This document shows positions 3,776-27,379 of a stretch of 59,367 nt of DNA, in pieces. Within the stretch, counting starts at the first letter, position 1, and each line of letters begins with the position of its first letter. Under the pieces are notes generated by a model. That model made no database searches, was not told where the DNA came from, and saw only the letters and a list, made by a program, of their open reading frames with translations. Both the position numbers and the translations under genes were made by a program. The stretch lies in IMG/VR virus record IMGVR_UViG_3300037244_000010, positions 1-59,367 of that record; one strand, written 5' to 3'. Origin of the DNA: a virus (taxonomy: Duplodnaviria > Caudoviricetes).

Positions 3776-3970
3776 ATGGCTGTACTACAAAAGCCTTTGA
3801 CTATGGAAGACATCCGCGCGCTGAACGTGAACCATCACCGATGTGACGGGAAGACATGCTCTTGCCGGTGTCAACGCCGTTGGCTCATTGACGTGTGGGA
3901 AGTGTTCATGGGGCCTGACCCGCGTTGGGCATGTAGATGTCACTGCGACTTCAAGAAAACAAAGGTTTAA
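3776..3970 (+). CDS. Cys/His-rich hypothetical protein
   Basis: CSCRC and CRCHC motifs; immediately upstream of terS. Confidence 0.55.
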   Translation: MAVLQKPLTMEDIRALNVNHHRCDGKTCSCRCQRRWLIDVWEVFMGPDPRWACRCHCDFKKTKV

Positions 3971-3977
3971 TAAACTC

Positions 3978-4409
3978 ATGGCAAACCTCGTAAAAGGCCC
4001 TCCACCTCGTTCAAAACGCTCCCCTAAAACGCGCGCGAAGTTCCTTGAGGCTTTGAAGGCTACAGGGAACATCAGTAAATCGTGCAAGTTGAGCCGTCTA
4101 CCGAAGACATGCGCCTACGAGTGGCGCCGGCAGGATGAGGAGTTCCGGCAAGCGTGGGATGAAGCCCAAGTGGAGGGCGAGGCGGTGCTTGAGGATGAGG
4201 CGAAGCGCAGGGCCTATGAGGGCGTGAAGAAGCCGGTCTACCAGGGTGGGAAGCGCGTGGGCTATGTCCAGGAGTACAGTGATACGCTTTTGATCTTCCT
4301 GCTGAAGGGAACGAACAAGGCAAAGTTCGGTGACCGCACCACGCTGGCCGGCGACAAAGACAATCCAGTGCAGGTGAGCGTGCTCGATAGTATCCTCAAG
4401 GGAGAATGA
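3978..4409 (+). CDS. terS: Terminase small subunit
   Basis: KFLEALKATGNISKSC..AYEWR..F..AWDEA..LEDEAKRRA..EYSDTLLIFLLKG; coupled to terL. Confidence 0.85.
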   Translation: MANLVKGPPPRSKRSPKTRAKFLEALKATGNISKSCKLSRLPKTCAYEWRRQDEEFRQAWDEAQVEGEAVLEDEAKRRAYEGVKKPVYQGGKRVGYVQEYSDTLLIFLLKGTNKAKFGDRTTLAGDKDNPVQVSVLDSILKGE

Positions 4410-6136
4410 AGCCGCTCACTGTAGTACAGAAGGCCAAAATCCGTAGTACACTCGTGAACCCAGTCAAGTTTGTACTACATTGGCTGGGGTCCGACTTGTG
4501 GAGCGTGCAGAAAGAAATCGCCATGGCGCTCACAAAGCCCCAGGCGAAGGTCAACGTAAAAGCGTGCCATAGCAGCGGCAAAACTTTTGAAGCGGCGCAA
4601 CTCGCGCTTTGGTGGCTGGCCCGGTACGAGAACGCCATCGTGGTGACCACGGCACCCACGAAAAAGCAGGTCGAGGTCCTGATGTGGGGTGAAATCCACA
4701 AGGCCCTCGTCAAGAGCAAGTATCCCTTCCCATCTGCAAACCTCACCAAACTTGAGTTTGATAAGACCAAGTACCCGATGCGGTACGCGCTCGGATTCAC
4801 GACGACCGTCCAGCAACAGAACGAGGGTGTCAAGTTCCAAGGCTTCCACGCTGACCACGTGCTCGTCATCATCGACGAAGCTCCTGGCGTTGATCCGAAG
4901 ATCATCGAAGCGATCGAGGGCATCCGGGCTGGCGGCGATGTGCGCATCCTGAAGCTGGGCAACCCTACCATATCTTCTGGCGCCTTCTACGACGAGTTCC
5001 ACAGCAAGCGCGCCAGCATCCAACCGTTCACAATCTGCGCGTTCGACACACCCAACTTCAAAGGCATCAAGCTTTCATATGAGGCTCAGGACTCAGAAGG
5101 TGCCCCGATCACCGTAACGCTCGGTGATCCCGCCGGCCGCGACCTGATGGACCTGACAGAGGAAGAGCTTGACCAGAACGTGATGCCTTGGCTGACCACC
5201 AGGCGGTGGGTCAAAGAGCGGTTTGAGGAGTGGGGGCCGGGAGACTTCCGCTGGGATTCACGCGTGATGGGAGACTTCCCCTCTCAGAGTCCTGATGCCC
5301 TGCTGTCCCTGGCATGGCTCGAGCGCGCTCAACGGGACACGCGGACCTACGAGGGGAAGGTAGACATCGGCATCGACGTGGCGGGTCCTGGCGAGGATGA
5401 GACGGTGATGGTGGCGCGGTGCGGCTTCCAGATTCTCGAGATTGTCGGCTGGGGCAATCCAGATCCCCGCGGCGAACTGGTGAGCGCGCTCCGGAAGTAT
5501 GGAGACAGAATCGGGATCCTCAACGTTGACTCGGCCGGCATCGGATACTACTTGCACAAGCACCTCCAAGACCTTGGCTTTCCATCGAATGCTGTCAACG
5601 TGGGCGAGTCTCCGGCCGACAAAGAGCAGTTCGTGAACCTCAAAGCTGAGCTGTACTGGGGCCTGCGGATGCGCGCGAAGTCCGGAGACCTATCAGGACT
5701 CGACGACGAGACGACCATTTCCCAGCTTGCCAGCATCCGGTGGAAGCCGAACAGCCGGGGGCAAACAGAGATCGAGTCCAAGGAAGCGATGCGGAAGAGG
5801 GGCGTCAAGAGCCCGGACCGCGCCGAGGCGATCATGCTGGCATTTGCCAAGGTGGCAAAGAACGGCGCCGGGCTGCTGGAGTACTACCAGGGCATCACGG
5901 CGGTGCAAACTGGTGGAGAACAGGACTCAAACCCAAAGACTCCCGGCTTTAGACCTGCACCTACCGTCACTACGCCCGTCAAAGCACCGGCTCTGACCGC
6001 CTACAACCGCGCTATGGCTGCCCTTGCGCCCCAAGACCTTTGTGATCATTGCGGCAAACCTCTTGGCGATACCGTAGTTGAAGAGGGCATACGCCGGATG
6101 CACCCCGACTGCGCAAGGCCGTCGTGGGCGTCCTGA
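4406..6136 (+). CDS. terL: Terminase large subunit
   Basis: Walker A ACHSSGKT, Walker B VIIDEA, coupling motif LGNP, nuclease GIDVA..D..SPDRAEA. Confidence 0.95.
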   Translation: MKPLTVVQKAKIRSTLVNPVKFVLHWLGSDLWSVQKEIAMALTKPQAKVNVKACHSSGKTFEAAQLALWWLARYENAIVVTTAPTKKQVEVLMWGEIHKALVKSKYPFPSANLTKLEFDKTKYPMRYALGFTTTVQQQNEGVKFQGFHADHVLVIIDEAPGVDPKIIEAIEGIRAGGDVRILKLGNPTISSGAFYDEFHSKRASIQPFTICAFDTPNFKGIKLSYEAQDSEGAPITVTLGDPAGRDLMDLTEEELDQNVMPWLTTRRWVKERFEEWGPGDFRWDSRVMGDFPSQSPDALLSLAWLERAQRDTRTYEGKVDIGIDVAGPGEDETVMVARCGFQILEIVGWGNPDPRGELVSALRKYGDRIGILNVDSAGIGYYLHKHLQDLGFPSNAVNVGESPADKEQFVNLKAELYWGLRMRAKSGDLSGLDDETTISQLASIRWKPNSRGQTEIESKEAMRKRGVKSPDRAEAIMLAFAKVAKNGAGLLEYYQGITAVQTGGEQDSNPKTPGFRPAPTVTTPVKAPALTAYNRAMAALAPQDLCDHCGKPLGDTVVEEGIRRMHPDCARPSWAS

Positions 6137-6386: not shown

Positions 6387-6538
6387 AGTGTAAGAACTGC
6401 GGAGAGGAAATCGAAGCTATCGCCTATCACGGGCATACGTGGCGCCACATCAAGACGGCACTATTTATGTGCATGAAAGACAGGAAGCCCGTTCGCGGGT
6501 CTAAGTGCTATTTTGAAGCTGAACCGGAGGCCAAATGA
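6383..6538 (+). CDS. Small Zn-binding hypothetical protein
   Basis: Below the ORF-track cutoff; MKCKNCGEEIE..WRH..C; ATGA-coupled on both sides. Confidence 0.6.
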   Translation: MKCKNCGEEIEAIAYHGHTWRHIKTALFMCMKDRKPVRGSKCYFEAEPEAK

Positions 6539-7071
6539 GCGTACACATCAACATCCGCATACCGGACGAGTTGGCGGCAAGGATTGACGAACGGGCCAAA
6601 GCGGAGTCAATGAGCCAGACGGCGGTGATCGTGAATTGGCTTTGGTCTGCATCGTCTCCCACTGTCATTCAGGTGCCGCCGATGAGTCCTGAAGTCGTTG
6701 CTGAATTCCAGAAGGCTATGGACGCGCAACCGCAGGGCAAGATTACGGCTATGGGTGGGATGCGAGACAGCCCGAAGCGGCTCAAGCCGGTTACCGCCCT
6801 CGTCAGGACCCCCAAAAAAGTCTTCGGCCCCAGCCGTCTCGAAGCGATCCTCCCTGATTTGGCGATTGCCGCTGGAGTTTGGCATGGAGCGCCGCCGAAG
6901 AACCTGAAACTGGCACGCGAGACCAAACCTAAGCGCGGCCTTGGCAGGACTCAAAAGCCAAAGGACGGAACCGTAAGTGAACAGACGCAAGGATGGATTG
7001 ACGTTATCAAAGGCAAGCCACTGGTAACCCACGCACCGGGCTGCAAGTGCCTGATGTGCCAAGGAAAGTGA
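6535..7071 (+). CDS. Ribbon-helix-helix (Arc/CopG-like) DNA-binding protein with C-terminal HxxxCxCxxC
   Basis: N-terminus SVHINIRIPDELAARIDERAKAESMSQTAVI. Confidence 0.75.
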   Translation: MSVHINIRIPDELAARIDERAKAESMSQTAVIVNWLWSASSPTVIQVPPMSPEVVAEFQKAMDAQPQGKITAMGGMRDSPKRLKPVTALVRTPKKVFGPSRLEAILPDLAIAAGVWHGAPPKNLKLARETKPKRGLGRTQKPKDGTVSEQTQGWIDVIKGKPLVTHAPGCKCLMCQGK

Positions 7072-7343: not shown

Positions 7344-9008
7344 ATGGCCTTGTGGGACGAACCGACAGAGATCAACGACGATACAGTGTTTGGTAAACGG
7401 CTGAACGACAAGGCATTGCAGAAGATGCCGGACGCTACAGGCGGCTCGATGACGCTCCTGAATCCGCGGTATGGACTCTTGAGCGCAAGGAATCGCGGTG
7501 GTGCCCGGCCTACTCTGCCAGTTCGGGACCCTGAAAACGACCGTCCTGGCCCTGATGACCGCCTCCTTCCCTCCGACTTCATCCCCGACGTAGACGAAGA
7601 GCGCAACCGCTTCAGCCCTTACCAGCCCGTAGCGCCGTTCGGCCCCCCGTCTATCGTGGACGCTCGCGAGTGGGACTACCCTACCGGCTACAACCTTGAG
7701 ATCGTCAACCGGCATATCGTCTTGGGTGAGATGCTACGGGGCATCGTCCGGGGCTCGGGAATCATCGCCAATGAGTTGAGCGCGCGCGTCGATGAGCTGG
7801 TGAGTCTGCCGTGGAAGTTCGTCCTGAAGAACCCGGCCAAGGGCGTGAAGTCTGAGGATGACCCGCGCATCAAAGAGCTGAACGCCTTCTTCAAGATGCC
7901 TGACCGGAAGGTACCCTACCCGCAGTGGATGGAGATGATCTTTCGCGAGCGGTACACCATTGACGCCGCCACGGTCTTCATCTGGAAGAATCGGGCTGGG
8001 ACGAAGCCCTACGCGCTGGAATGTATTGACGGGAATACCATCGTTCCAAAAGTGGACGACCGCGGTCGCATCCCTGACTGGCCCTCCCTGGCCTATGTCC
8101 AGATCGTAAAGGGCCTCCCGATGGACAACTTTACCGAGCGGGAGATCGTCTACATGCCCCGGCATCGGTGGGCTCAGAATCCAATCTTCGGATACTCCGA
8201 GGTTGAGCAGATCCTGATGGAGGCTACCCAGCAGGTTCGCAAGACGATGTACATGCTCAACTTCTGGAACGAGGGAACCTGTCCTGATGTGATGGTGTGC
8301 TGCCCGGAGAACTGGACTGCTGAGCAGATTGCGCTATGGCAAGGAACGTTCGACGCACTGATGAGCGGGAATCTCAAGCTCAAGTCCAAGATGCGGTTCA
8401 TCCCTGGCGGTGGAAAGCCTTTCGAAATGAAGGGTTCGGCCGGCGACCTGCTCAAGTCGGAATACGACGAGTGGATGGCCCGCATCGTTTGCCGCGCCTT
8501 CAGGACCGACCCAAAGCCCTACATCAAAGAGCCTGAGCCGCGGGCGAACTCCGAGCAGCTTCAGGAGCAGATGCGCGCTCAAGGGCTCAACGGAGAGATG
8601 CTTTGGTGGTCGAGCCTGATGGAGCGCCTTATTTTTCTCGGATGGGGATGGGATGACATCGGCCACGCGTTCGACCAGAATGAGGAAGTGGCGGCAACCG
8701 ACCAAGCCACCATCGACACCGACAATACATCTCTCGGCGCCAGAACGATTAACGAACTACGGGACCGCGACGGCTTGGACGCGGTAGAGGGCGGCGACGT
8801 GCCGATGGTCAAGACGGGCACCGGATGGATGCCGCTGGCGGTCCTGGCGGCGCAGACCGCACTGCCTACACCAGTTGCACCGGGCGGCACCGGCGGGGCG
8901 TCAGGACCCGGAAAGAGTACCAGTAAGCCCACTCCCACGCAAAAGGAGGCCGGGACGGAAGCCGGCAACCCTTTAGCAAAGCGGGGAAGTCACTGGAGCA
9001 GTTACTAG
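7344..9008 (+). CDS. Portal protein
   Basis: Follows terL; HK97-like portal motifs (IDGNTI, YVQIV.G, GYSEVE, RTINELRDRDGLDAVEGGD). Confidence 0.9.
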   Translation: MALWDEPTEINDDTVFGKRLNDKALQKMPDATGGSMTLLNPRYGLLSARNRGGARPTLPVRDPENDRPGPDDRLLPSDFIPDVDEERNRFSPYQPVAPFGPPSIVDAREWDYPTGYNLEIVNRHIVLGEMLRGIVRGSGIIANELSARVDELVSLPWKFVLKNPAKGVKSEDDPRIKELNAFFKMPDRKVPYPQWMEMIFRERYTIDAATVFIWKNRAGTKPYALECIDGNTIVPKVDDRGRIPDWPSLAYVQIVKGLPMDNFTEREIVYMPRHRWAQNPIFGYSEVEQILMEATQQVRKTMYMLNFWNEGTCPDVMVCCPENWTAEQIALWQGTFDALMSGNLKLKSKMRFIPGGGKPFEMKGSAGDLLKSEYDEWMARIVCRAFRTDPKPYIKEPEPRANSEQLQEQMRAQGLNGEMLWWSSLMERLIFLGWGWDDIGHAFDQNEEVAATDQATIDTDNTSLGARTINELRDRDGLDAVEGGDVPMVKTGTGWMPLAVLAAQTALPTPVAPGGTGGASGPGKSTSKPTPTQKEAGTEAGNPLAKRGSHWSSY

Positions 9009-9733
9009 CGGCCTACCTCAAGCGCAAAGGAAAAGAGGCGGCAGCAGGACTCACCGTCGAGAAACTGGCGAAGGCTGCGAAGAAGAAGCCAGAAGATCAG
9101 GACACGATAGACGTCGTGGTGGACTGGGGCGACCTGATCCCGGAGGTGACGCCTTATCTTGAAACCGATGCGGTAGCTGGCGCCACAGAGTTCTTGACCG
9201 ACCGCGGCATTGTTGAAGACTCGGACATGTGGACCAAAGTCTTAGACCAGGCGCGGCAGATGGCTCGTGAGCGCGGCGCGGAACTGGTGGGCAAGCGCAT
9301 CACAGACAAGGGCGAGATTGTTGATAATCCTGATGCCCGCTACGCCATCACAGAGACGACGCGCGAAAACCTGAGAGAGTTGATAAGCAAGTCAGTCGAT
9401 GAAGGATGGACGACGACAGAACTTCAGCACAACATCTTACAGAGCGAGGACTTCAGCGCAGCTCGGGCTCTGACCATCAGCAGGACCGAAAGCATGTACG
9501 CCTACAACCACGGCAAGCATGAGGCGGCTAAAGGCACAGGGCAGAAGTTCAAGCAGAGTTTCCCTGGCGAGGGGTGCTGTGAAGAGTGCGAAGAAAATGC
9601 AGATGCGGGTCTCATCCCTATCGACGAGGATTTCCCGTCTGGAGATGACTGCCCCCCATTTCATCCTGCGTGTAGGGACGGTATCGGCTATTCTGAAGCG
9701 AAGGACGATAGCGAATCAGAGGGAGAGGAATAG
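8969..9733 (+). CDS. Minor head protein (SPP1 gp7/Mu gpF-like), probably entered by -1 frameshift from the portal
   Basis: RALTISRTE, CCEEC..N, PPFHPACR motifs. Frame open from 8927; first GTG only at 9116; slippery C_CCT_TTA at 8969-8975. Confidence 0.8.
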   Translation, partial: PFSKAGKSLEQLLAAYLKRKGKEAAAGLTVEKLAKAAKKKPEDQDTIDVVVDWGDLIPEVTPYLETDAVAGATEFLTDRGIVEDSDMWTKVLDQARQMARERGAELVGKRITDKGEIVDNPDARYAITETTRENLRELISKSVDEGWTTTELQHNILQSEDFSAARALTISRTESMYAYNHGKHEAAKGTGQKFKQSFPGEGCCEECEENADAGLIPIDEDFPSGDDCPPFHPACRDGIGYSEAKDDSESEGEE

Positions 9734-10170: not shown

Positions 10171-10494
10171 TTACAGAGCAAAAACGCATCCGGTCATAAT
10201 GGCGCACTCTATATCTGTGACCGTCACGGGGTCCGTCGTATCCAGGAGCTTCTCGCGGACAGCTCTTGCCGCCTCGCGGGCTGCGAGTTGCTGGTAGAGA
10301 TAGCAGACGGCCTGCTCAAGAGTGTCTCCAAAAGCGTAATTGTTGAGAGTGTTGCCTGCAAAAATCATCCCGGCTGAGTAGCGCAACGGCTTACCGTTGC
10401 GGCTCTTGCTGGACTCATAGCGCACTGTGACCGCGCCCATTGTGCCATTGATAACCACTTCCTGCCCTGCATTGAGTTGCTCGTGGATTGTCAT
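10171..10494 (-). CDS. Hypothetical protein
   Basis: TAAGGAG RBS and own promoter. Confidence 0.7.
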   Translation of the reverse strand: MTIHEQLNAGQEVVINGTMGAVTVRYESSKSRNGKPLRYSAGMIFAGNTLNNYAFGDTLEQAVCYLYQQLAAREAARAVREKLLDTTDPVTVTDIECAIMTGCVFAL

Positions 10495-10526
10495 TTTTGC
10501 TGCTCCTTATGCGGTTGATTGCCAAC

Positions 10527-10636
10527 AACCGTTTAGTTGATAAACCGAGAATAGCACCCCCACTGCGCATGTCAACAGAAAAGTTTAATAAGCGCATAAT
10601 ATTTATGTTGATAAACCCGGCGAGTGGTGGTTTAAT
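10527..10636. promoter_or_regulatory. Divergent sigma70 promoter pair of the accessory block
   Basis: Leftward TTGACA-16-TATTCT (10575-10548); rightward TTGATA-17-TTTAAT (10608-10636); AT-rich island with several TTRATAA boxes. Confidence 0.65.
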
Positions 10637-10664
10637 AATCCTGTTCACAGAAAGGGGTCTTGAG

Positions 10665-10940
10665 ATGACCGAAACAGAACGGATCACGAACGAAGTCATG
10701 AGCAATTGCGGATTCGATGCCAAGGGGCGTTATCACGCTCCCGAATATCCACATGCCAACGTCCTCGGCGAAGGGCCGAACGTAAGCGAGTTGCGGAACG
10801 ACGACGGCATTGCTTTCTTCACTGGCATCCGCAACGCGCTGGCCTTTGAGGTCCTGGCAGGACTCGCAATCTGGGGCTTGTGGGAGTTGCATTACCCCAT
10901 CATGGTCCTGGCCCACTGGCTGGTGGCCCATGCACGTTAA
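10665..10940 (+). CDS. Hypothetical membrane protein
   Basis: Hydrophobic C-terminal half; AAAGGGG RBS. Confidence 0.6.
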   Translation: MTETERITNEVMSNCGFDAKGRYHAPEYPHANVLGEGPNVSELRNDDGIAFFTGIRNALAFEVLAGLAIWGLWELHYPIMVLAHWLVAHAR

Positions 10941-11178
10941 CCTCCGCAACGCCTACCTGTGCGCTGATTGTGACGCAATCGGCGACTCGCCAGTGCAGTG
11001 CCCGGCTTGTGCGAGCCGGTTGGGCATCCTGCCTCTGATAACCGTCCTCAACAGGACCCAGAAGGCCACGTTGGTTCCAAAGGACCTCACCCACATGGAA
11101 GTGTTCGGAGTGGATGGAATAACTTGGAGTGGCTATGCAAGCCACCGCAGCGCTGCATTGGCAGCCTCAAAGGAGTAG
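10930..11178 (+). CDS. Zn-ribbon hypothetical protein
   Basis: CADC...CPAC. Confidence 0.65.
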   Translation: MHVNLRNAYLCADCDAIGDSPVQCPACASRLGILPLITVLNRTQKATLVPKDLTHMEVFGVDGITWSGYASHRSAALAASKE

Positions 11179-11180
11179 AC

Positions 11181-11402
11181 ATGTACCAAACCGACAGACA
11201 ACGGGACGCCGAAGCAATTGTGAGGATTCTGCACGAGGTGACAGACGATGACCGTTCAGTAGAGGGATATTGCTACTTGTGTGGGGAAATAACCCCAGAT
11301 GACCCTCCAGAAGTGCATGGAGAATCTTGCCCTTTTGGCATGGCAGACGAGTTCATCGCCAAGTACGGGACTCACCCGCCGGCAGAACCGAGGCGCGTAT
11401 GA
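11181..11402 (+). CDS. Hypothetical protein (CxxC..H..C)
   Basis: AAGGAG RBS; MYQTDRQRD. Confidence 0.65.
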   Translation: MYQTDRQRDAEAIVRILHEVTDDDRSVEGYCYLCGEITPDDPPEVHGESCPFGMADEFIAKYGTHPPAEPRRV

Positions 11403-11575
11403 AGTCTAAAAAAACAGATAGAGGACTTGATGCGACCTTTCACCCCACTGCGGTTTCTCCAGATGGTCAGATTGGGAGCTTAGTCCTAACATTGGGAGGA
11501 GATCGCATTGAGATGACTTATGCTCAAGCGCGGGCTTTGGTGGCGGCAATCATCATGAAAGTAGGACTCGCGTGA
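11399..11575 (+). CDS. Hypothetical protein
   Basis: Translationally coupled in a chain of small ORFs. Confidence 0.5.
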   Translation: MKSKKTDRGLDATFHPTAVSPDGQIGSLVLTLGGDRIEMTYAQARALVAAIIMKVGLA

Positions 11576-11742
11576 CGCTCCCCGAGATGATCGACGAGGT
11601 CTACGAGAAAACCCACGTTCCGATGATCGAGGTCCTGAACTTGATTGAGGACAACTGGCCGGGACACGAGACGTTCACCCCAACCCAATGCAACCTGCTC
11701 GTAAGCCTGATCGGCAGGAAGAAACAGGAGATGCAATCTTGA
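11572..11742 (+). CDS. Hypothetical protein
   Basis: Manual translation MTLPEMIDEVYEKTHVPMIEVLNLIEDNWPG...; coupled on both sides. Confidence 0.55.
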   Translation: MTLPEMIDEVYEKTHVPMIEVLNLIEDNWPGHETFTPTQCNLLVSLIGRKKQEMQS

Positions 11743-11921
11743 AATACATCGTCCAAATTAAGAGCGAAGATGGCAAGCGCTATCAATCCACAATATGGAC
11801 TGACCCTTTCGGAGAGAAGCCAACTCCCGTCTCAAAGCGGCGCGCAGGAGAGGCGCTGGCATGTGCCCATCAGCTCTATCCTGCCGAGACTTATCGCATT
11901 CATCCCGTGGAGGCGAAATGA
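11739..11921 (+). CDS. Hypothetical protein
   Basis: AGGAG RBS then TTG; coupled. Confidence 0.55.
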   Translation: MKYIVQIKSEDGKRYQSTIWTDPFGEKPTPVSKRRAGEALACAHQLYPAETYRIHPVEAK

Positions 11922-12451
11922 CCACCATCTACAGTGAACTGCTGGCAGCGGCCGGCACTGAGTTCTTACCCCAGGCCGAGGGCGAGCCTGACGGCCACTA
12001 CCTGCGGCGCCTTGTGCTGGCCGTGTCGAAGGCGTCAGATAGCGACTGGGAGCGCCTGAGCAAAGATGCACAGGACTGGTACAACGCCCAGGCAAAGCGC
12101 GTGAAGGCGCATCAGAATTCCGAGTATTGCCCAGGATTCATCAACCCCATCGTCGATGCCGTGGTGGATGCTGGCTGGCCCGCGGACGCACCCGCGCAAG
12201 CCGATGCCGCTATTGGCCCGGTTCCTGTCGGAGATCAGGACTCACCGCACGCTCTGAGCCCCAAGCACACCGCAACGGATGCCGTCCGCGCGCTGGTGAT
12301 GCTCCACACCGACTGGAACCAAGCGCAGATCATGCGCGAACTGGAAAGCCAAGGGCGCGTGGTCAGCATCGGGACCATCGCCACGGTGCGCAGCATGACC
12401 CTGGCGACCATCGCTGTAGCGAAGGGACTGGGAAAGTGGGTGGAGGGATGA
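11918..12451 (+). CDS. Hypothetical protein, possible C-terminal HTH
   Basis: GGAGG RBS; WNQAQIMRELESQGRVVSIGTIATVR. Confidence 0.65.
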   Translation: MTTIYSELLAAAGTEFLPQAEGEPDGHYLRRLVLAVSKASDSDWERLSKDAQDWYNAQAKRVKAHQNSEYCPGFINPIVDAVVDAGWPADAPAQADAAIGPVPVGDQDSPHALSPKHTATDAVRALVMLHTDWNQAQIMRELESQGRVVSIGTIATVRSMTLATIAVAKGLGKWVEG

Positions 12452-12816
12452 GAAAGATTCACGACATAGAACTTGACGGGTATACGGGTCCTGATGGCAA
12501 GTTCCACGCTACCGGCGTATCGCTCGTGGAGAATTCACGGGACCCGCACACTGGCATCTTTGTCGATGATGGCGTGTCTCCAACTATCCTGCGGCACGAC
12601 TTCCTCGCATGGGTTCCAGACAATTTACTTCGTCAGTGGAAACTCGTAGTCGAACCTGAGCGCAAGGAGATTGTAGCCACAGTGACGGCGGAAGCGATAA
12701 ACGCTCGCGTCGGTATTGACAGGATCAGTGAGCGCATCGAATTGCAACTCAGCAAGATATTCGCTCGCGTCCCGTCTCTGACTAAAGCTATCGAGCATCA
12801 CTGGAAGCCGCTATGA
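12448..12816 (+). CDS. Hypothetical protein
   Basis: Coupled ORF MRKIHDIELDG. Confidence 0.6.
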   Translation: MRKIHDIELDGYTGPDGKFHATGVSLVENSRDPHTGIFVDDGVSPTILRHDFLAWVPDNLLRQWKLVVEPERKEIVATVTAEAINARVGIDRISERIELQLSKIFARVPSLTKAIEHHWKPL

Positions 12817-15222: not shown

Positions 15223-16857
15223 ATGGACGATTTCAGCGTATTTCTCCCGATTGAAAAGGTGGACGCGCAGAGCGGAATGGTCTGGGGCTATGCCTCAACG
15301 CCATCGAAGGACCTGCAAGGGGAGATTGTTCCGCTGGACGCCATCAAGGCCGCCCTCCCCGACTACATGAAGTGGGCGAACATCAGGACCATGCACACCA
15401 ACAATGCCGTTGGCGTGACCAAAGAGGCCCACATTGACGCCAAAGGGCTCTACATCGGTGCCAAGATCGTTGATCCCGCCGCATGGAAACTGTGCAAGGA
15501 AGGCGTCTACAAGGGCTTCAGTATCGGCGGTTCCAAGCTGGAGAAGGTTGGCGATGTAGTAAAGGCGCTTTCCTTACGAGAGATCAGCCTCGTTGACCGG
15601 CCGGCGAACTCCGATTGCCGCATCGACGTATGCAAGATTGCCGGTGGACTCGCCTTTGGAGGGTCGATGGAGAATCAAACCAGTAACGAGACTTTGATGG
15701 AAAAGGCGCTTGACACGTTCCGGACGATTCTCGGAATGGGGAAGATTGCCCTTCCTGACCTTGCCAAAGCCGCACAGGACCCGAATCCGAGTCCTGTTGA
15801 GTCCGACGAACTGACCGCCGATGAGATGGCCACTCTGACCGCCAAGTTTGCGGACGGCGTTGACCTTGAGAAGCGGGAGTTCAGCGAAAAGGAACGGAAG
15901 CACCTCGGTAGCACTGGGGTAGCGCTTCCCGACGGTTCTTTCCCTGTCCAGACCGTGAAGGATCTTGAGAACGCCGTCCAAGCCTTTGGCCGCGCATCGG
16001 ACCCCGAGAAAGCCAAGGCTCACATTGTCACACGCGCGAAAGCGCTGAACGCAACACACCTTCTACCCGCCGATTGGCCGGGCAGCACCAAAGAGGAGAA
16101 AACAATCATGGCTATGGAACTCCAGAAGCGCTTCACGGCGGCAAGCAAGGCGGCCATAAAGAAGGCCGATGACCACATCAAGAAGGCTTCGGCCTCCCAC
16201 GGCAAGGCGGTCGACGAGATTGAAGCCCTCCACAAGTGCATGGGCAAGGCGGCCGACGGCGGCGATGAGTTCAAGAAGCACCTCACGGCGCTTTCGGGAC
16301 ACATGAACGACATTGCCGACCATCACGAACTGGCTCATGCCGCACTCGGCAAGGCTATGACCGGATGGGATGGAGAGAAGGCGGAAACCGACTTGGGCGA
16401 AGAGCCTGCTTCGGAGAACGTGGAAGAGCTTTCCCCCCGGCGCATGACTGAAGGCGAAGTTGAGGGAAACACCTTCCGCGGCGCTGGCGACTCGCCATAT
16501 TCGGCGTCTGCGATTGCGACGATGGTCAAGGCCGCTGTGGCCGAAGCTACCGCCCCGCTGATTGCCGACAACGCCTTCCTCAAGGGTCAGATGTCCGTGA
16601 TTGAGAATCAGCCCTCCGCGGGGCGCCGCCCGAAGCTGTTCGTTGCCAGCTCCACCGGCGATGTGTTCCCGGCCAGCGACGGCAAGGCCGACTTCAACCG
16701 GATGATCAACAAGTCGCTCTCCGAAGCTGACCCGAACGACCAGCGCAGTTCCGAGCAAGCCACGGCGCGCGCTTTCGGCCTGATGTGTACCCCCGGCAGC
16801 GGGTTTGCGAAGTCGATCAACGACCCCAACTTCAAGATTGACCTGGGCGGCAACTAG
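15223..16857 (+). CDS. Prohead protease (HK97-type) fused to scaffold region
   Basis: VWGYAST..DLQGE..IRTMH..GVYKGFSIGG..EISLVDRPAN; helical C-terminal part; directly before the capsid gene. Confidence 0.9.
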   Translation: MDDFSVFLPIEKVDAQSGMVWGYASTPSKDLQGEIVPLDAIKAALPDYMKWANIRTMHTNNAVGVTKEAHIDAKGLYIGAKIVDPAAWKLCKEGVYKGFSIGGSKLEKVGDVVKALSLREISLVDRPANSDCRIDVCKIAGGLAFGGSMENQTSNETLMEKALDTFRTILGMGKIALPDLAKAAQDPNPSPVESDELTADEMATLTAKFADGVDLEKREFSEKERKHLGSTGVALPDGSFPVQTVKDLENAVQAFGRASDPEKAKAHIVTRAKALNATHLLPADWPGSTKEEKTIMAMELQKRFTAASKAAIKKADDHIKKASASHGKAVDEIEALHKCMGKAADGGDEFKKHLTALSGHMNDIADHHELAHAALGKAMTGWDGEKAETDLGEEPASENVEELSPRRMTEGEVEGNTFRGAGDSPYSASAIATMVKAAVAEATAPLIADNAFLKGQMSVIENQPSAGRRPKLFVASSTGDVFPASDGKADFNRMINKSLSEADPNDQRSSEQATARAFGLMCTPGSGFAKSINDPNFKIDLGGN

Positions 16858-16923: not shown

Positions 16924-18516
16924 ATGAATGAATTCGAGAAGTTCCTGCAAAGCGACACTTTCAAGCAGGCCATTGACGAGCGTGTTGGCACTCTCGCGAA
17001 GGCCGACACTGTTGACCAGAACACGGGGCTGGTGTGGTACGACCTGAGCCGCATCGTTCAGGAAATGCACCCGTTCAAGCAGTTGATTCCGCTGATCTCC
17101 AGCCTCCCCCGCGTCCCCGCCGATGGCGGCACTGCGCACCGTTGGAAGAGGGTCACCGGCATCAACGTCAACAACGTATCCATCGGCGTCCCCGAGGGCG
17201 AGCGCGCGGCCGCTTCCGCCATCACCGTTCAGGATCAACTGGCAAGCTACAAGACCATGGGCCTCGAAGGATCCGTGTCATGGGAAGCCCGTCTGGCCGC
17301 TCTCAACCTCAAGCCCGATGCTCAAGGCGTGACGATTCAGGCCACGCTGCAAGGTGTCATGGTGGGCGAAGAGCAGACGCTCATCGGCGGCAACGCCTCC
17401 ACCCCGCTGGGTATCACTCCCACGCCCACCTTGACCGCCGCCGGCACTACTTCGGCGCTTTCCAATGTTCCCTACTACCTCGTATGCGTTGCCCTCAGTC
17501 ATGCGGGATGGCGTACCGGCAGCATGGCCAACGGCATCCCCGGACAGGTCACGTTGACCAGCACCACGGGAACCATCACCAACGTGGGCGGCGGATCGGC
17601 TCAGCCTTCCGCGCAGGCCACCATCACCCCGACTGCCGGCCAGATCATCACCGCAACCGTTACGCCTGTGGTCAACGCCGTAGCCTACGCTTGGTACTTC
17701 GGGACCACGACCGGCGCGGCCCGGCTCCAGGGCATCACCACCACGAACCAGGCGAAGTTCAGCTCGGTCCCGTCCACCACCAATCAACTGATTACCGCTC
17801 TCCAGGTCAATGGTGCGTATCAGGACAACTCGACAAATACCCTGTTGCCCGATGGCATTCTCAGCCAGATCAACGGTTCCGTATCCGGTTCCGCCCCTGG
17901 CACCGCCATGGCAACCAACCCGAACCTGCCCGTTGTGGCCAGCGGGACTCTCGGATATGCGGGCTCCGGCGCGCTGATCTTCCAAGGCGCCAGCGGCAAC
18001 ACTGGCTTGACCATTGCCGGTACCAGCATCGTCGAGTTCGATGCCGTCTTCCAGGCTACCTACGACCAGTACAAGATTGGCTTTGACCGGATTCTGGTCA
18101 GCTCCACCGACCTGAACTCGAACATCGCTCAGTTCTTGAACACGGCCAGCACCAATAACAGTCTCCGCATGGTGTTTGAGGCGGACTCGGGCAGCGGATC
18201 TCAGATCGTTGCCGGGCGCGCGGTCAACGCCTACAAGAACAAGATCTACGGCAACACTCTGCCGATTGAAACGCATCCCAACCTGCCTCCGGGCACGATC
18301 CTCTTCTGGTCTGATCGCTCTCCGTACCCGCTGAGCGGTGTGGCCAACATCCTCGAAGCGCGTGTCCGTCAGGACTATGTGCAAGTGTCCTGGCCTCTGC
18401 GCACCCGGCGCAATGAGTACGGCGTGTATGTCGATGAGACATTCGCCCTGTACTTCGCCCCGGCCTTCGCCATCCTGACCAACATCAACCAGCCGACGGG
18501 AACCCAGACGTTCTAA
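16924..18516 (+). CDS. Major capsid protein with inserted beta-rich domain
   Basis: Follows protease; strong RBS and codon bias; HK97-like ends (LPRV, EEQTLIGGN, IETHPNLPPGTI, EYGVYVDETF..FAILTNI). Confidence 0.85.
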   Translation: MNEFEKFLQSDTFKQAIDERVGTLAKADTVDQNTGLVWYDLSRIVQEMHPFKQLIPLISSLPRVPADGGTAHRWKRVTGINVNNVSIGVPEGERAAASAITVQDQLASYKTMGLEGSVSWEARLAALNLKPDAQGVTIQATLQGVMVGEEQTLIGGNASTPLGITPTPTLTAAGTTSALSNVPYYLVCVALSHAGWRTGSMANGIPGQVTLTSTTGTITNVGGGSAQPSAQATITPTAGQIITATVTPVVNAVAYAWYFGTTTGAARLQGITTTNQAKFSSVPSTTNQLITALQVNGAYQDNSTNTLLPDGILSQINGSVSGSAPGTAMATNPNLPVVASGTLGYAGSGALIFQGASGNTGLTIAGTSIVEFDAVFQATYDQYKIGFDRILVSSTDLNSNIAQFLNTASTNNSLRMVFEADSGSGSQIVAGRAVNAYKNKIYGNTLPIETHPNLPPGTILFWSDRSPYPLSGVANILEARVRQDYVQVSWPLRTRRNEYGVYVDETFALYFAPAFAILTNINQPTGTQTF

Positions 18517-23627: not shown

Positions 23628-23656
23628 CACGTTTGGCGGCAAAGGAGCGGAGAAAT

Positions 23657-25966
23657 ATGAGTTTCTTCCATGGCATTACAGTAACCGAGGTCAACACCAA
23701 CGGCGTATCGATTCAGGTGGTCAACTCGGCAGTTATTGGCCTCATCGGCTCGGCTCCGCAGTGGTCGGCATCGTCTGGAGCAGGACCCGGAATCAACGTC
23801 CCGACGCTCATTCAGTCCGCCGCGCAGGGCTCGGCGTTTGGCAAGCAGATTCAGGGTTATACGATTCCTGAAGCCCTTGCGGACATTCAACTCCAGGGCG
23901 CGGGGGCCGTCATCGTCATCGACGTGTTCAACCCACTGCTCCATCAGAGCACCTTTGCGACCAATCCCTTGACAGGACCCGCATCCAACAGTGTGCCGGT
24001 AACACTCGGTCACATGGGCCTAATTGGTCCAGGCTTGCCCAACACTCCCCTTTCTACCGCTTCGGTTGACACCGTGGCGCAGGCGGGCGGCGCGGCAAGC
24101 CACAGTTATGCAACAGGCGACACGATCACCCTCGCGGGTGGAACGGCGTCAACTCCCGCGGTCCTGACCGTGGCGACAACGAAGCTCGTATCGCTGGCGG
24201 TGAATGCCCCCGGCGGCGCTACATCGCACAACTACGCAGCCGGCGACAGCGTTACGCTGGCAGGCGGAACCGCTTCGGTTGCTCCTCAACTCACCGTTAC
24301 CTCCACTCAGGTTACGGGCGCAACGGTTGCGATCGGTGGAAGCGGCGGCACGAACGGGACTCAAACTGTGACCGGAACGACTGGCACCGGGACACGCTTT
24401 CAGGCTTCTGTGACTGTGGCCGGTGGCGCGATTACCGCGGTCCTGTCGATCTCTTTGGCTGGCTCCTACTCCATAAACCCCACGGCTCCCGCTCTTGAGC
24501 CTGTGACGGGCGGTGGACTGGTTGGCGCCGAACTGGCAATCACTCTGGGCGTGGCCACCTTCAACATCGTCAACGCGGGTAGCTTCACCGTGAACAGTGC
24601 CGCGCTGACACAGGCAAGCTCAACAGGACTCGGCACCGGGGCAACCTTCAACCTTGGCGTCTTTGGAGTCCTGACGGCCACGGTATCCACTGCGGGCAGC
24701 TACTCGGCTGTCCCGGCGAACCCTGTAGCTCAGGCCAGCACCTCGGGCAGCGGCACCGGTGCCACTTTCAATGTGACCTTTGCGGGGCCGCCTACCACTG
24801 TCGTGGTCAAGAACCAGGCCGGCTCGACGACCTACGTCGAGGGCACTGATTACACCATCGATTACGTGAACGGCCTGCTCTACACCAAGAGCGGCGGCGC
24901 AATCACCTCGGCGCAGGCATTGCAGGTCTCCGGCGCCTACTGCGACCCGTCCAAGGTTGCATATACCGACATCATCGGGACCGTGACCGGAAGCACCTAT
25001 ACCGGCATCCAAGCCTTGCAGACCACCTTCCAGACGATGGGCCTGTTCGCCAAGCTGCTCATCACCCCAACCTTCTACGATGCGTCAACCAGCGCCAACC
25101 TGCTGGCCATGGCGACGAAGCTCCAGGCCATCTCGTTCACCGACGCGCCCCCGAACACGACTGTGGCAACCGCCATCGCCAACCGCGGAGCCGCCGGCAA
25201 TGCCTTCAATCAGGCCAGCGACAGGCTCGCGCTCACCTTCCCTTGGCAGTTGAAGACTCCCACCGCCATCATCCCCACTGGCGTTGTGGTGAGCGCGCAG
25301 GGAAACATCGGCTATACGTCCGTGACTGGCACCGTGGACACGCCGTATAGCACGTGGGTAGCTGGCGCTACGGCAGCCAGCGATATCGCCAATGGCTTCT
25401 GGTTCTCGCCGTCGAACACGGTCATCAACGGTATTCTGGGTCCCGATGTCAGCCTATACATGAGCGCCTACGACCCGACTTCAGACACGAACGCGCTGAA
25501 CGCGGCTGGCATCATGACGGTCTTCAACGGCTTCGGTACCGGCTACAGGACATGGGGCAACCGCGCATCGAGCTTCCCGTCGAGCGGCGCAGTGACCACG
25601 TTTATCGCCGTTCGCAGGACCCTCGACGTTGTGGAGCAGAGCATCCAGTACAGTTCGCTGCCCTTCGCCGATAAGCCCATCACCAACGGTCTCATCAATT
25701 CGATCTTGCAGAGCGTGAATGGGTTTATCAACTCGCTCATCCAGCAGGGCGCATTGATTGCCGGAAGCGCGGTCACCTACAACCCGGTTGACAACCCCCC
25801 TGCGAGTCTGGCGAATGGGCAACTCACGTTTGAAGTAAGCGTGATGCCGCCGCCGCCGGCCGAGCAGATCATTTACAACTTCTCCATCAACACCAGCCTG
25901 CTTGCGAACCTCGGGGCATCCGTAACGAGCACCAGCACAACCAGCAACTTCAACGTGACCGCATAA
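23657..25966 (+). CDS. Tail sheath protein with large insertion
   Basis: MSFFHGITV..SAVIGLIGSAP; C-terminal GFWFSPSN, LNAAGI, GYRTWGNR, FIAVRRT (P2 FI-like). Confidence 0.95.
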   Translation: MSFFHGITVTEVNTNGVSIQVVNSAVIGLIGSAPQWSASSGAGPGINVPTLIQSAAQGSAFGKQIQGYTIPEALADIQLQGAGAVIVIDVFNPLLHQSTFATNPLTGPASNSVPVTLGHMGLIGPGLPNTPLSTASVDTVAQAGGAASHSYATGDTITLAGGTASTPAVLTVATTKLVSLAVNAPGGATSHNYAAGDSVTLAGGTASVAPQLTVTSTQVTGATVAIGGSGGTNGTQTVTGTTGTGTRFQASVTVAGGAITAVLSISLAGSYSINPTAPALEPVTGGGLVGAELAITLGVATFNIVNAGSFTVNSAALTQASSTGLGTGATFNLGVFGVLTATVSTAGSYSAVPANPVAQASTSGSGTGATFNVTFAGPPTTVVVKNQAGSTTYVEGTDYTIDYVNGLLYTKSGGAITSAQALQVSGAYCDPSKVAYTDIIGTVTGSTYTGIQALQTTFQTMGLFAKLLITPTFYDASTSANLLAMATKLQAISFTDAPPNTTVATAIANRGAAGNAFNQASDRLALTFPWQLKTPTAIIPTGVVVSAQGNIGYTSVTGTVDTPYSTWVAGATAASDIANGFWFSPSNTVINGILGPDVSLYMSAYDPTSDTNALNAAGIMTVFNGFGTGYRTWGNRASSFPSSGAVTTFIAVRRTLDVVEQSIQYSSLPFADKPITNGLINSILQSVNGFINSLIQQGALIAGSAVTYNPVDNPPASLANGQLTFEVSVMPPPPAEQIIYNFSINTSLLANLGASVTSTSTTSNFNVTA

Positions 25967-26843: not shown

Positions 26844-27227
26844 ATGGCAACAGGACCCATCGTACTGACTTCCGATACAACCCCTTCCCCCGAACAGATT
26901 CGCCGCGAGTTCGATCTTCCCTCTGGCAAGCACGTTATCTTGCTCAAAGGCACAGGCCGTGACCAGCGTCTGGCCGCCACGGTTGCCGGCGAGAACGCAG
27001 ACAGCATCAAGATTCAGGACGCCCTGGCTTCCCGTCTGTCCCTTGTGGACGGCAAGCGCATCCGCATGGAAGACGTGGACGAGATGGACTTTGACGATGC
27101 GATGGTGTTTCGCGCCGAGGTCTCTCAGGTATTGCGCCCTTTGCTCCAGAGGATTTCCAGTGTCCTGAAACCGACGCCGGACGCTCCGAACCCCAATCAG
27201 GACGCGGAAACAGACCAGTCGTCCTAA
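26844..27227 (+). CDS. Tail assembly chaperone (gpE/gpG-like)
   Basis: Position before TMP; FDLPSGK..GTGRD..MEDVDEMDFDD; slippery C_CCT_TTG at 27137-27143. Confidence 0.8.
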   Translation: MATGPIVLTSDTTPSPEQIRREFDLPSGKHVILLKGTGRDQRLAATVAGENADSIKIQDALASRLSLVDGKRIRMEDVDEMDFDDAMVFRAEVSQVLRPLLQRISSVLKPTPDAPNPNQDAETDQSS

Positions 27228-27379
27228 GCATGGAAGCGTTGGGCGCGATGGTGCATGAAGGGGTCAGTCCTGAATCCATCGATTCCATGTCAATAGGCGA
27301 TTTAGTAGGGTGGTACCAAGTTCTACAACAGTACAGCCGGGCAGTTGAGAAGCGCATCCCGAAGCGGAGGAAACCTTGA
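27137..27379 (+). CDS. Tail chaperone frameshift extension (gpE'/gpT-like)
   Basis: -1 frame open from the slippery site to TGA 27379; encodes SPESIDSMSIGDLVGW; in-frame ATG at 27230. Confidence 0.7.
   Translation, partial: PFAPEDFQCPETDAGRSEPQSGRGNRPVVLSMEALGAMVHEGVSPESIDSMSIGDLVGWYQVLQQYSRAVEKRIPKRRKP

Follow-up and report, generated by a model that had tools for sequence, protein, structure and literature searches.

The portal gene of this uncultured phage from peat very probably contains, near its end, a programmed −1 ribosomal frameshift signal, a C_CCU_UUA heptamer at which the MuF-like minor head protein encoded downstream would be fused to some of the portal subunits. We give this reading a probability of about 85%, based on the reading frames of the window (by which we mean the whole stretch of 59,367 nucleotides that was analysed) and on a comparison with related viral contigs. 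The most likely product pair, to judge from the two frames, is a plain portal of 554 aa and a portal-MuF fusion of roughly 796 aa. It is plausible that a minority of the portal subunits carry MuF.

Layout of the portal/MuF junction

The features of the junction are collected in Table 1. The portal ORF scored 41.5 bits against PF04860 over residues 154 to 476 (E 1.2e-10; curated cut-off 39.1), and the −1 frame scored 34 bits against PF04233 (curated cut-off 29.6), which places both in their families. The portal family alignment also found the PDB portal 8q7d. When 7344-9733 was compared to GenBank phages by megablast there was no match, and relatives there are found at the protein level only.

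The preliminary description of this DNA had read the gpF/MuF frame as open from 8927, with no ATG, GTG or TTG until 9116, and had located C_CCT_TTA in the portal frame ten codons before the stop, where a −1 slip enters the MuF frame. These coordinates hold after a check of the ORFs and codons, and the peptide that was quoted for the intervening stretch is present in the translation of the −1 frame. This frame runs open for 268 codons (8927 to 9733), with the GTG at 9116 as the earliest ATG, GTG or TTG. The heptamer is phased as C (8969), CCT (8970-72) and TTA (8973-75) and is followed by ten sense codons and then the TAG. It lies in the 0 frame, inside the open −1 frame and before the 0-frame stop, which is the structure of a tandem-slippage X_XXY_YYZ site. 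The fusion had been estimated at about 795 aa; the corrected figure is about 796 aa (544 + 252).

The occurrence of such a heptamer by chance is rare. In the portal genes of relatives there are 13 in-frame X_XXW_WWN heptamers per 11,319 codons, so that only about 0.03 would be expected in a 26-codon overlap. Across the window, the hexamer CCCTTT as such occurs about as often as expected (27 matches versus 25.7).

Table 1. Positions of the portal/MuF junction features and of the tail-chaperone pair in the window
Feature	Positions	Strand	Basis and remarks
Portal gene (0 frame)	7344..9008	+	ORF; 554-aa product; stop TAG 9006-9008
Portal C-terminal linker	8850..8968	+	Translation and alignments; Pro/Gly/Ser/Thr-rich, variable; ends directly 5' of the candidate slip site
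Shine-Dalgarno-like AAGGAGG	8943..8949	+	19 nt upstream of the heptamer; invariant in the clade of the window
Candidate slippery heptamer C_CCT_TTA	8969..8975	+	Portal frame; predicted P-site CCU, A-site UUA
−1 frame read after the proposed slip	8975..9733	+	252 codons and TAG 9731-9733; MuF-like C-terminal extension
Overlap 3' of the candidate slip site	8976..9008	+	Ten 0-frame codons and TAG (plain portal); first −1-frame codons (predicted fusion)
CTG codon	8993..8995	+	Sole plausible rival start near the portal stop; TTG in some relatives; no GGAG/GAGG upstream
GTG GTG	9116..9121	+	First canonical starts of the −1 frame; not conserved as starts among relatives
Phage_Mu_F (PF04233) domain	9368..9676	+	Residues 148-250 of the 268-codon open frame; E 5.5e-08
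Tail assembly chaperone pair G/GT	26844..27379	+	G 26844-27227; −1 extension to 27379; C_CCT_TTG at 27137-27143

Conservation and frame of selection

We compared 27 distinct 730-nt junction sequences, consisting of the window and related viral contigs. No base of the heptamer varies among them, the portal TAG is invariant at 39 nt from the start of the heptamer, and in every one of them the −1 frame encodes MuF. The heptamer is also unchanged in the L046 cluster, which has 56% identity in MuF, and it reads C_CCT_TTC in the L074 cluster (50% identity). Conservation had been named in advance as a check on the frameshift, and heptamer and −1 overlap are both kept in all diverged relatives with the same layout.

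In-frame fusions are present in the nearest annotated phages and in many relatives from metagenomes, and it could be argued that the offset is an assembly or sequencing indel in a truly single portal-MuF gene. This reading is effectively refuted. The identical −1 offset is present in the 27 distinct junction sequences, which come from many independent assemblies and include three 100%-identical contigs. The preliminary description had asked for reads to confirm that the offset is not an indel, and the independent contigs contain none: no letters are added or missing in a DNA contig that spans the stretch (X8) or in the DNA pieces of X10, and the RNA-library contig X15 bridges 8872-9030 without an indel (the RNA-library contigs cover parts of the stretch and bear on its sequence only, not on transcription, ends or level). 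CCCTTT also lacks the long homopolymer runs that are prone to indel errors.

The positions of the variable bases indicate where the frame of selection changes. Counted at portal codon positions 1, 2 and 3, respectively, there are 70, 40 and 177 variable bases in the portal body (8609-8900) and 20, 17 and 26 in the portal linker (8850-8968), which is only weakly phased. The counts are 0, 5 and 0 in 8976-8992, 28, 51 and 27 in 9009-9115, and 56, 124 and 70 in 9116-9338. Because portal position 2 is the third position of the −1 frame, selection changes frame at the heptamer. Third-position variation keeps to the portal frame before the heptamer and to the −1 frame directly after it, and the synonymous fractions match. 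All five variable sites between the heptamer and the CTG at 8993 are −1-frame third positions, an outcome with a probability of about 0.004 if position were random. Judged by this pattern of variation and by homology to fused proteins, the downstream frame is protein-coding from the putative slip site onward. It has no conserved start or Shine-Dalgarno sequence, with the reservation that a CTG/TTG codon lies at 8993.

A sister pair pins the location of the predicted slip site at the sequence level. When L100, which carries C_CCT_TTC, is compared to the in-frame protein of L116, 0-frame homology stops at Pro-Phe and −1-frame homology begins at the same point. We also considered A_AAG at 8942-8945 as a slip site and rejected it. 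Upstream of 8943, in the portal linker, the relatives have two alternative sequence types, and the base preceding A_AAG is G in the second type of the clade; the phase switch lies at 8969-8975.

A −1 overlap is present in 21 clusters of relatives; in 14 of them the overlap contains an in-frame X_XXW_WWN heptamer, where 0.68 would be expected. None of 200,000 simulations reached 14 clusters, the maximum being 6; the clusters, which were defined at 70% MuF identity, are interrelated, so that this enrichment test is not fully independent. Several heptamer types are represented (CCCTTTA/C/T, AAAAAAG, GGGAAAA and TTTAAAA). In the remaining seven, no heptamer is present and a start codon lies at the portal stop.

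Could the downstream frame be a decaying pseudogene behind an inactivating frameshift, or could its frame be restored by transcriptional slippage? Both are very improbable. For the window, nothing beyond the offset itself points in this direction, although L053 and other lineages have a run of 9 to 10 A at the site, and slippage of RNA polymerase is a known alternative at long A runs. The −1 ORF is intact, however, and its variation is concentrated at third positions in relatives down to 50-56% identity. The site in the window consists of runs of three bases only, which are too short for transcriptional slippage, and the RNA-library contig bridges it without an indel, with the limitation that contigs drop rare variants.

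Homology to single-ORF fusions and predicted fold

Both frames match the phrog_2662 profile collinearly, the portal at profile positions 33-434 (E 5.5e-44) and the −1 frame at positions 488-712 (open-frame residues 19-260). The window thus has the two domains of the PHROG 2662 single-ORF type in the same order, but not in one uninterrupted frame. The portal-MuF protein of phage Strzyga (775 aa) is 33% identical to the window portal over its residues 50-471, and residues 13-250 of the open −1 frame align to its residues 532-765. The 268-aa frame is covered to 85-92% by many proteins of 715-820 aa that have both PF04860 and PF04233. In single-ORF portal-MuF proteins, the homologue of the stretch before 9116 is an internal segment.

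An AlphaFold model starting from 8969 had a mean pLDDT of 87.4 and a pTM of 0.82. In this model, three helices at residues 9-46, upstream of 9116 (residue 50), fold confidently together with the MuF domain. Foldseek comparison of the MuF model with the PDB gave no match at E <= 0.001, and a sequence search of the PDB returned portals only, with no MuF sequence relative of solved structure found.

Possible start codons for MuF

MuF could instead be a separate protein, made without any frameshift from an independent start or by termination-reinitiation after the portal TAG, at CTG/TTG 8993 or at GTG 9116/9119. We consider this unlikely. There are indications in its favour. All relatives examined have either CTG or TTG at 8993, 24 nt past the heptamer, and 6 nt before this codon there is a G-rich run (8983-8986). 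GTG 9119 is retained in most close relatives and aligns with a GTG in L053. In L026 an in-frame TAA followed by an ATG lies between the linker and MuF, which is perhaps made separately there, and the seven −1 clusters with a start codon at the portal stop show that separate expression exists in the family.

Against this, initiation at 8993 leaves unexplained why the five variable bases between the heptamer and this codon all occupy −1-frame third positions, and why homology to internal parts of single-ORF fusions starts at the heptamer. The GTG codons are most likely internal Val codons, as far as can be judged from the alignments: codon 9116 is TCG, TTG or GTC in relatives, and codon 9119 is ATC in L026. 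A start at 9116 would also delete the three confidently modelled helices. In L035 there is no ATG, GTG or TTG in the MuF frame until 230 nt past the portal stop, and this lineage and the GGGAAAA lineages, which lack a canonical start for 110-230 nt past the stop, nevertheless keep the −1 peptide from the heptamer onward. Between 8927 and 8992 the −1 frame, when its codons are read directly, contains no CTG, ATT, ATC, ATA, ACG, AAG or AGG. A GGAG or GAGG at −5 to −15 precedes about 18 of the 24 other gene starts inspected, and none is found before 8993 or 9116/9119; the sole Shine-Dalgarno-like motif before the two GTG codons is an AGGA at −17/−20. Separate synthesis would, finally, give no reason for an invariant heptamer.

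The preliminary description had named independent initiation at 9116 or at CTG ~8993 as the findings that would speak against a frameshift. Neither is borne out by the comparison, since GTG 9116/9119 is not conserved as a start and lacks a Shine-Dalgarno sequence, and the coding signature changes frame at the heptamer, upstream of CTG 8993.

Candidate signals around the proposed slip site

An excerpt of a study of frameshifting motifs in E. coli (PMC4066793) lists C_CC.U_UU.A and C_CC.U_UU.G among 18 motifs that gave more than 0.10% frameshifting without stimulators. According to the same excerpt, the best U_UU motifs in E. coli end in C or U, not in A (PMC4066793). In the 23 ORFs of the window, UUA accounts for 12 of 497 Leu codons.

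The AAGGAGG upstream of the heptamer is a candidate stimulator, as suggested by its invariance in the clade and by the presence of AAGGGGG at the identical 19-nt spacing in the L046 and L074 clusters. Its conservation may instead be purely at the protein level (K-E/G-A-G). The best Shine-Dalgarno spacing for dnaX- and IS-type signals is roughly 10-14 nt, and the spacer of 19 nt found here falls outside the range of the dnaX/IS911 type. Downstream, the fold of 8976-9075 is no better than that of shuffled sequences (MFE z-score 0.78). Two RNAalifold runs gave a weak consensus hairpin that partly pairs the heptamer, with one compensatory pair and several broken pairs. We propose no stimulatory structure from these folds.

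Discussion

What the sequences show is the layout of the frames, their conservation, the change of coding frame at the heptamer and the homology to single-ORF fusions; slippage of ribosomes at the heptamer, the ratio of the two products, a role of this ratio in stoichiometry and any stimulatory element are inferred. Ribosomes on the portal mRNA would reach C_CCU_UUA, of which UUA is the rarest Leu codon of the phage, and a fraction would slip back by one base, so that pairing changes from CCU to CCC in the P site and from UUA to UUU in the A site. From 8975 to 9730 the slipped ribosomes would translate the −1 frame. Ribosomes that do not slip would make the plain portal, ending 10 codons past the heptamer, and the others a portal of about 796 aa in which the flexible C-terminal linker leads into a helical segment and a MuF (SPP1 gp7-like) minor head domain. 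Since the C-terminus of the portal points into the capsid interior, MuF in the fusion would come to lie within the head, at the portal, and the number of MuF-bearing subunits among the 12 would depend on how often ribosomes slip.

Portal-MuF fusions in a single ORF are known. An excerpt of PMC7302621 describes them for the Microbacterium phage subclusters EA3, EA5 and EA8 and cluster EB. Others are gp3 of Arthrobacter phage Sonali ('portal and MuF-like fusion protein'), the proteins of the Brevundimonas phages Strzyga and Polewnik, and PHROG 2662. They resemble the predicted fusion in domains, domain order, a comparable linker and length (775 aa in Strzyga versus about 796 aa here). However, they are encoded in one frame, whereas here two frames are used and joining them needs a −1 slip. 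Because the halves are in different frames, the plain portal is expected to be the default product and the fusion optional, unlike in the single-ORF phages. The literature searched contains no portal-MuF frameshift, only in-frame portal-MuF fusions, and a search by the letters of the heptamer gave mainly papers on miRNAs and, among the matches listed, no report on phages or bacteria. In SPP1, the portal gp6 and the MuF family protein gp7 are linked non-covalently and gp7 has its own start codon; a low-frequency covalent tether, as proposed here, would reach the same end.

The frameshift would be a simple route by which a protein inside the head is positioned at the portal vertex in a fixed, small number of copies; SPP1 reaches this placement through non-covalent binding, and other phages do so with a full fusion. 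Annotation is affected as well. Gene callers place the start of such MuF genes at a GTG or TTG further downstream, or annotate them in truncated form, and recognition of the frameshift would correct this in a whole clade of environmental myoviruses and in several other lineages.

A wider reading, to which we give slightly less than even odds, is that the portal-MuF junction is a general recoding hot-spot of tailed phages and that nearly all lineages in which the two are linked encode two isoforms of the portal in a single stretch of DNA. The layout may be either a short 0-frame and a long −1 product, or an in-frame fusion with a slip in the linker that leads to an early −1 stop, as in dnaX. 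These two layouts may interconvert via single-base indels at the slip site, and the slip frequency may be an evolved dial for the number of MuF-bearing subunits and for fused cargo (inteins here; toxins or enzymes elsewhere).

Frameshifts of the −1 type are known for capsid proteins, namely in T7 gene 10A/10B and in the major head protein of phage A2. They resemble the proposed case in that −1 slippage gives two versions of a structural protein of the head, but there the major capsid protein receives a short extension, whereas here two otherwise independent head proteins would be joined. The E. coli dnaX tau/gamma and IS3/IS911-type signals (see also PMC4066793) share the tandem-slippage heptamer and possibly the upstream Shine-Dalgarno-like element. 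They differ in that the heptamer here is C_CCU_UUA instead of A_AAA_AAG, the Shine-Dalgarno-like motif lies at a distance of 19 nt, no clear hairpin or pseudoknot emerged downstream of the heptamer, and the shifted product is the longer one.

The G/GT frameshift of the tail chaperones, reportedly described by Xu, Hendrix and Duda in 2004 for lambda and most long-tailed phages (work cited in PMC7302621 and PMC7911831), is a further parallel. There too, a −1 slip on X_XXY_YYZ near the end of a structural gene yields a short and a C-terminally extended product, and it is by the conserved overlap, in phages whose heptamers differ, that the frameshift is recognised. Unlike in G/GT, the proteins concerned here are portal and MuF, of the head and not of the tail, and what is added is an entire folded domain of about 250 residues, encoded elsewhere by a separate gene or as part of an in-frame fusion. 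Next to the tail-chaperone site, the portal-MuF site would be a second structural-gene frameshift that is widely conserved in tailed phages. The window contains a G/GT pair of its own, and the earlier remark that its site is of the C_CCT_TTN type proved correct, the heptamer being C_CCT_TTG. On this comparison of sequences the chaperone site is an internal control, as the same heptamer class appears to serve −1 frameshifting in this lineage. Its −1 frame continues for 80 codons to 27379, and the tape measure gene begins at 27376. The chaperone heptamer is conserved in L061-L063 and is C_CCT_TTA in L064 (46-49% identical), and the peptide of the −1 extension is conserved as well.

Results

The window comprises an entire virus record of 59,367 bp, which is complete and bears direct terminal repeats; its genome is of the myovirus type. 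The last 40-odd portal residues upstream of the putative slip site form a variable linker rich in Pro, Gly, Ser and Thr. A preliminary description had stated that the MuF frame is open from 8927 but lacks ATG, GTG or TTG until 9116, and that C_CCT_TTA lies in the portal frame about 10 codons ahead of the stop. These coordinates check out: the first such codon is GTG 9116, and the heptamer is followed by ten codons and then by the portal-frame stop TAG (9006-9008). The hexamer CCCTTT occurs 27 times in the window against 25.7 expected; as it is not enriched, the significance of the heptamer depends on phase, position and conservation.

Positions of the features discussed in the text
Feature	Position	Remarks
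TerS and TerL	3843-6136	
Portal ORF	7344-9008	554 aa, PF04860
-1 frame behind portal	8927-9733 (open)	268 codons; Phage_Mu_F domain, residues 148-250
C_CCT_TTA	8969-8975	CCT and TTA are portal-frame codons
Tail sheath	23633-25966	
Tail assembly chaperone G ORF	26844-27227	C_CCT_TTG in frame, 27137-27143
Tape measure	27376 (start)	

The frame offset is no artefact. Relatives of the -1-frame protein are encoded at 56 loci in the viral contigs scanned. The window and all junction-covering loci with at least 56% MuF identity have an identical layout, with MuF in the -1 frame and the portal stop about 80 nt past the position at which the MuF frame opens or continues. Over this region, three contigs match the window with 100% identity. 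We also compared contigs from four further sequencing runs over 8700-9300, and none of the four listed an inserted or missing letter; one DNA contig covers the whole interval with one mismatch and no gap, and an RNA library yielded a variant contig that crosses 8872-9030 without a gap. The assembly indel against which the preliminary description had advised a check is contradicted by these sequences, which, being contigs, are unable to reveal rare variants or demonstrate transcription. Taken jointly, an artefact, a pseudogene or RNA-level slippage can hardly explain the offset.

For the junction we aligned 27 distinct sequences of 730 nt each; five loci on related contigs (L020, L041, L050, L051 and L052) were excluded as too short. 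None of the seven heptamer columns contains a variable base, and the portal TAG is invariant, so that the conservation of heptamer and overlap, also named earlier as a point to check, holds across these sequences.

Variable bases at each portal codon position in the junction alignment
Region	Position 1	Position 2	Position 3
Portal body, 8609-8900	70	40	177
Linker, 8901-8968	20	17	26
Heptamer to codon 8993, 8976-8992	0	5	0
9009-9115	28	51	27
9116-9338	56	124	70

As portal codon position 2 is the third position in the -1 frame, these counts give a portal-frame signature up to the slip site and a MuF-frame signature from the first codons after it; synonymous fractions agree with a switch at this point. 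Among the relatives, two sequence types occur in the final portal linker at 8931-8943 (…SKPTPTQ… and …AQQPSK.ASVK…), and the difference between them ends precisely at AAGGAGG (8943), from which point they are identical, a pattern that suggests a recombination boundary where the conserved putative frameshift cassette begins.

The same counts bear on the possibility that MuF is initiated independently with no frameshift at all, as CTG or TTG at 8993 and GTG at 9119 could yield some independent or re-initiated MuF. Read codon by codon, the -1 frame from 8927 to 8992 contains no ATG, GTG, TTG, CTG, ATT, ATC, ATA, ACG, AAG or AGG, and CTG 8993 is the only candidate start nearby. The -1-frame third-position signature already covers the codons upstream of CTG 8993 and the entire stretch upstream of GTG 9116, and the starts are not conserved. 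GTG at codon 9116 is restricted to the window and contigs nearly identical to it, other sequences having TCG, TTG or GTC; codon 9119 is ATC in the related locus L026, and in another, L035, the first canonical start lies 230 nt beyond the portal stop. By manual count, GGAG or GAGG is present at -5 to -15 in about 18 of 24 other gene starts of the window, and at this distance there is none for 8993, 9116 or 9119. We therefore consider independent initiation without frameshifting unlikely.

In the nearest annotated phages both domains are present in one ORF. Brevundimonas phages Strzyga and Polewnik have a single-ORF portal-MuF protein of 775 aa, and a single ORF of Arthrobacter phage Sonali is annotated as 'portal and MuF-like fusion protein'. 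The window portal aligns with Strzyga residues 50-471, and the alignment of the -1 frame, which begins at its residue 13 (two codons ahead of the heptamer Pro), covers residues 532-765. Both parts fit a single PHROG profile of 717 positions, the portal at 33-434 and -1-frame residues 19-260 at 488-712. A large protein collection contains many PF04860+PF04233 proteins of 715-820 aa that span 85-92% of the 268-aa frame, and the stretch upstream of 9116 aligns to an internal segment of such proteins. Modelled with AlphaFold, the -1 product read from 8969 (mean pLDDT 87.4, pTM 0.82) has three helices in residues 9-46; all three would be lost with a start at 9116 (residue 50).

Insertions were also seen in relatives. 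In loci L027 (3558-5273) and L074 (3501-5264) and in proteins P0002 and P0003, an intein (PF14890) lies directly past the MuF domain in the MuF frame; the -1 product of intein-bearing relatives is about 570-590 residues, and the window has no intein. Two further groups (L024:3449-4642 and L040:3736-4929) carry an in-frame insertion of about 130 residues, with no hit in Pfam, that separates the post-heptamer helix from the MuF domain. To judge from these two groups, large insertions are tolerated in the linker.

More distant loci were added by a profile-based scan of viral and genome contigs and clustered at 70% MuF identity into 90 clusters, which were the unit of counting since some contigs were fetched twice. 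An in-frame X_XXW_WWN heptamer is present in the overlap of 14 of the 21 clusters with a -1 portal-MuF overlap, against 0.68 expected from the portal-body rate (13 heptamers per 11,319 codons); none of 200,000 simulations reached 14 (maximum 6). The heptamers vary by cluster (CCCTTTA, CCCTTTC, CCCTTTT, AAAAAAG, GGGAAAA, TTTAAAA), and the -1 peptide past them is alignable among lineages and with in-frame fusions. In the remaining seven clusters the overlap is short and a start codon lies at the portal stop or close to it, an arrangement that looks like that of ordinary coupled genes. In a quick, poorly resolved tree of 54 representatives, whose clusters are non-independent samples, the window clade and the L046 and L074 clusters, all with C_CCT_TT[A/C], group together with support of 100; lineages of the frameshift type are scattered among fused ones, and at least three state changes are required by well-supported branches. 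In the best-supported sister pair, L100 (C_CCT_TTC) and the in-frame L116, the 0-frame homology of L100 to the L116 protein stops at a Pro-Phe and its -1-frame homology starts at that very Pro-Phe, which places the shift at the heptamer.

Among loci L001-L196, 18 of 25 in-frame fusion clusters also have an in-frame slippery heptamer in the portal-MuF linker (e.g., L140:3476, L090:3446 and L150:3293). The remainder of these ORFs predicts 5.55, and in 200,000 simulations the count never rose above 16; as Lys-rich linkers may inflate the excess, we regard it as a lead. After most of these heptamers a -1 stop comes within 2-23 codons, and a dnaX-like slip could give a portal without MuF.

In tailed phages, -1 frameshifting at the tail chaperone site is the accepted rule. 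A C_CCT_TTN heptamer had been reported at this site of the window as well, and it is indeed there and conserved: C_CCT_TTG is identical in three relatives, and a relative at 46-49% identity has C_CCT_TTA at the equivalent site, followed by a conserved -1 peptide. In the window, the chaperone -1 frame runs for 80 codons onward to 27379, adjoining the tape measure. This lineage thus uses C_CCU_UUR at a position of accepted -1 frameshifting.

Discussion

The layout first noticed at this junction is confirmed, and conservation, the frame switch and fusion homology support its interpretation as a programmed -1 frameshift joining portal to MuF. Most likely, tandem -1 slippage at 8969-8975 would give the 554-aa portal and a portal-MuF protein of roughly 796 aa, with the portal linker as a flexible tether; as first proposed, a minority of portal subunits may carry MuF. 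The comparative data point to a frameshift that is conserved within one clade and has parallels in other clades. According to PMC4066793, 18 heptamers shift at more than 0.10% in E. coli when no stimulator is present, C_CC.U_UU.A and C_CC.U_UU.G among them. UUA is the rarest Leu codon (12 of 497 in 23 window ORFs), the phage encodes no tRNA genes, and it is reasonable to suppose that a slow A-site codon may contribute to the slip. Candidate stimulators are AAGGAGG (AAGGGGG in two sister clusters), conserved exactly 19 nt upstream of the heptamer, and a weak hairpin 7-13 nt downstream; no significant RNA structure was found near the slip site.

For phage SPP1, PMC6316719 describes how a few copies of gp7, a MuF homologue, enter the procapsid by binding the portal, and how gp7 supports the start of infection. 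Whereas gp7 binds the portal, a low-frequency covalent join in the window phage would, by analogy, serve the same job. In-frame portal-MuF fusions are described in PMC7302621, and a passage in PMC10885494, a text in which the word 'portal' is absent, says of MuF-VIP2 that pairs fused elsewhere might frameshift when in different frames. In the open-access main texts searched, we found no description of a portal-to-MuF frameshift; the proposed mechanism is canonical, and the gene pair is one for which no published account was found.

Locus L026 (4100-4260), on a 30-kb contig, has a net 60-nt linker insertion before MuF; it contains a GC-rich inverted repeat and an in-frame TAA, and the MuF frame restarts at an ATG 18 nt further on. 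Either this variant is naturally split or the genome is defective; if the genome is viable, covalent portal-MuF linkage is not obligatory.

Other ORFs of the window were also noted. Between terminase and portal, a 178-aa ORF (6535-7071) weakly matches partition-protein ATPases at its N-terminus (phrog_795, E 2.2e-05). The region 10488-12816 after MuF contains several + strand ORFs (120-230 codons) that overlap in differing frames; four of the five scanned against PHROGs gave no match, and ORF 11861-12451 has a marginal match to phrog_38529, a function-unknown family (E 0.00087). Further on, ORF 16924-18516 strongly matches a family of unknown function, and the ORF just before it (15223-16857, 544 aa) has PHROG matches to head maturation protease and major head protein and may be a protease-scaffold-type fusion.
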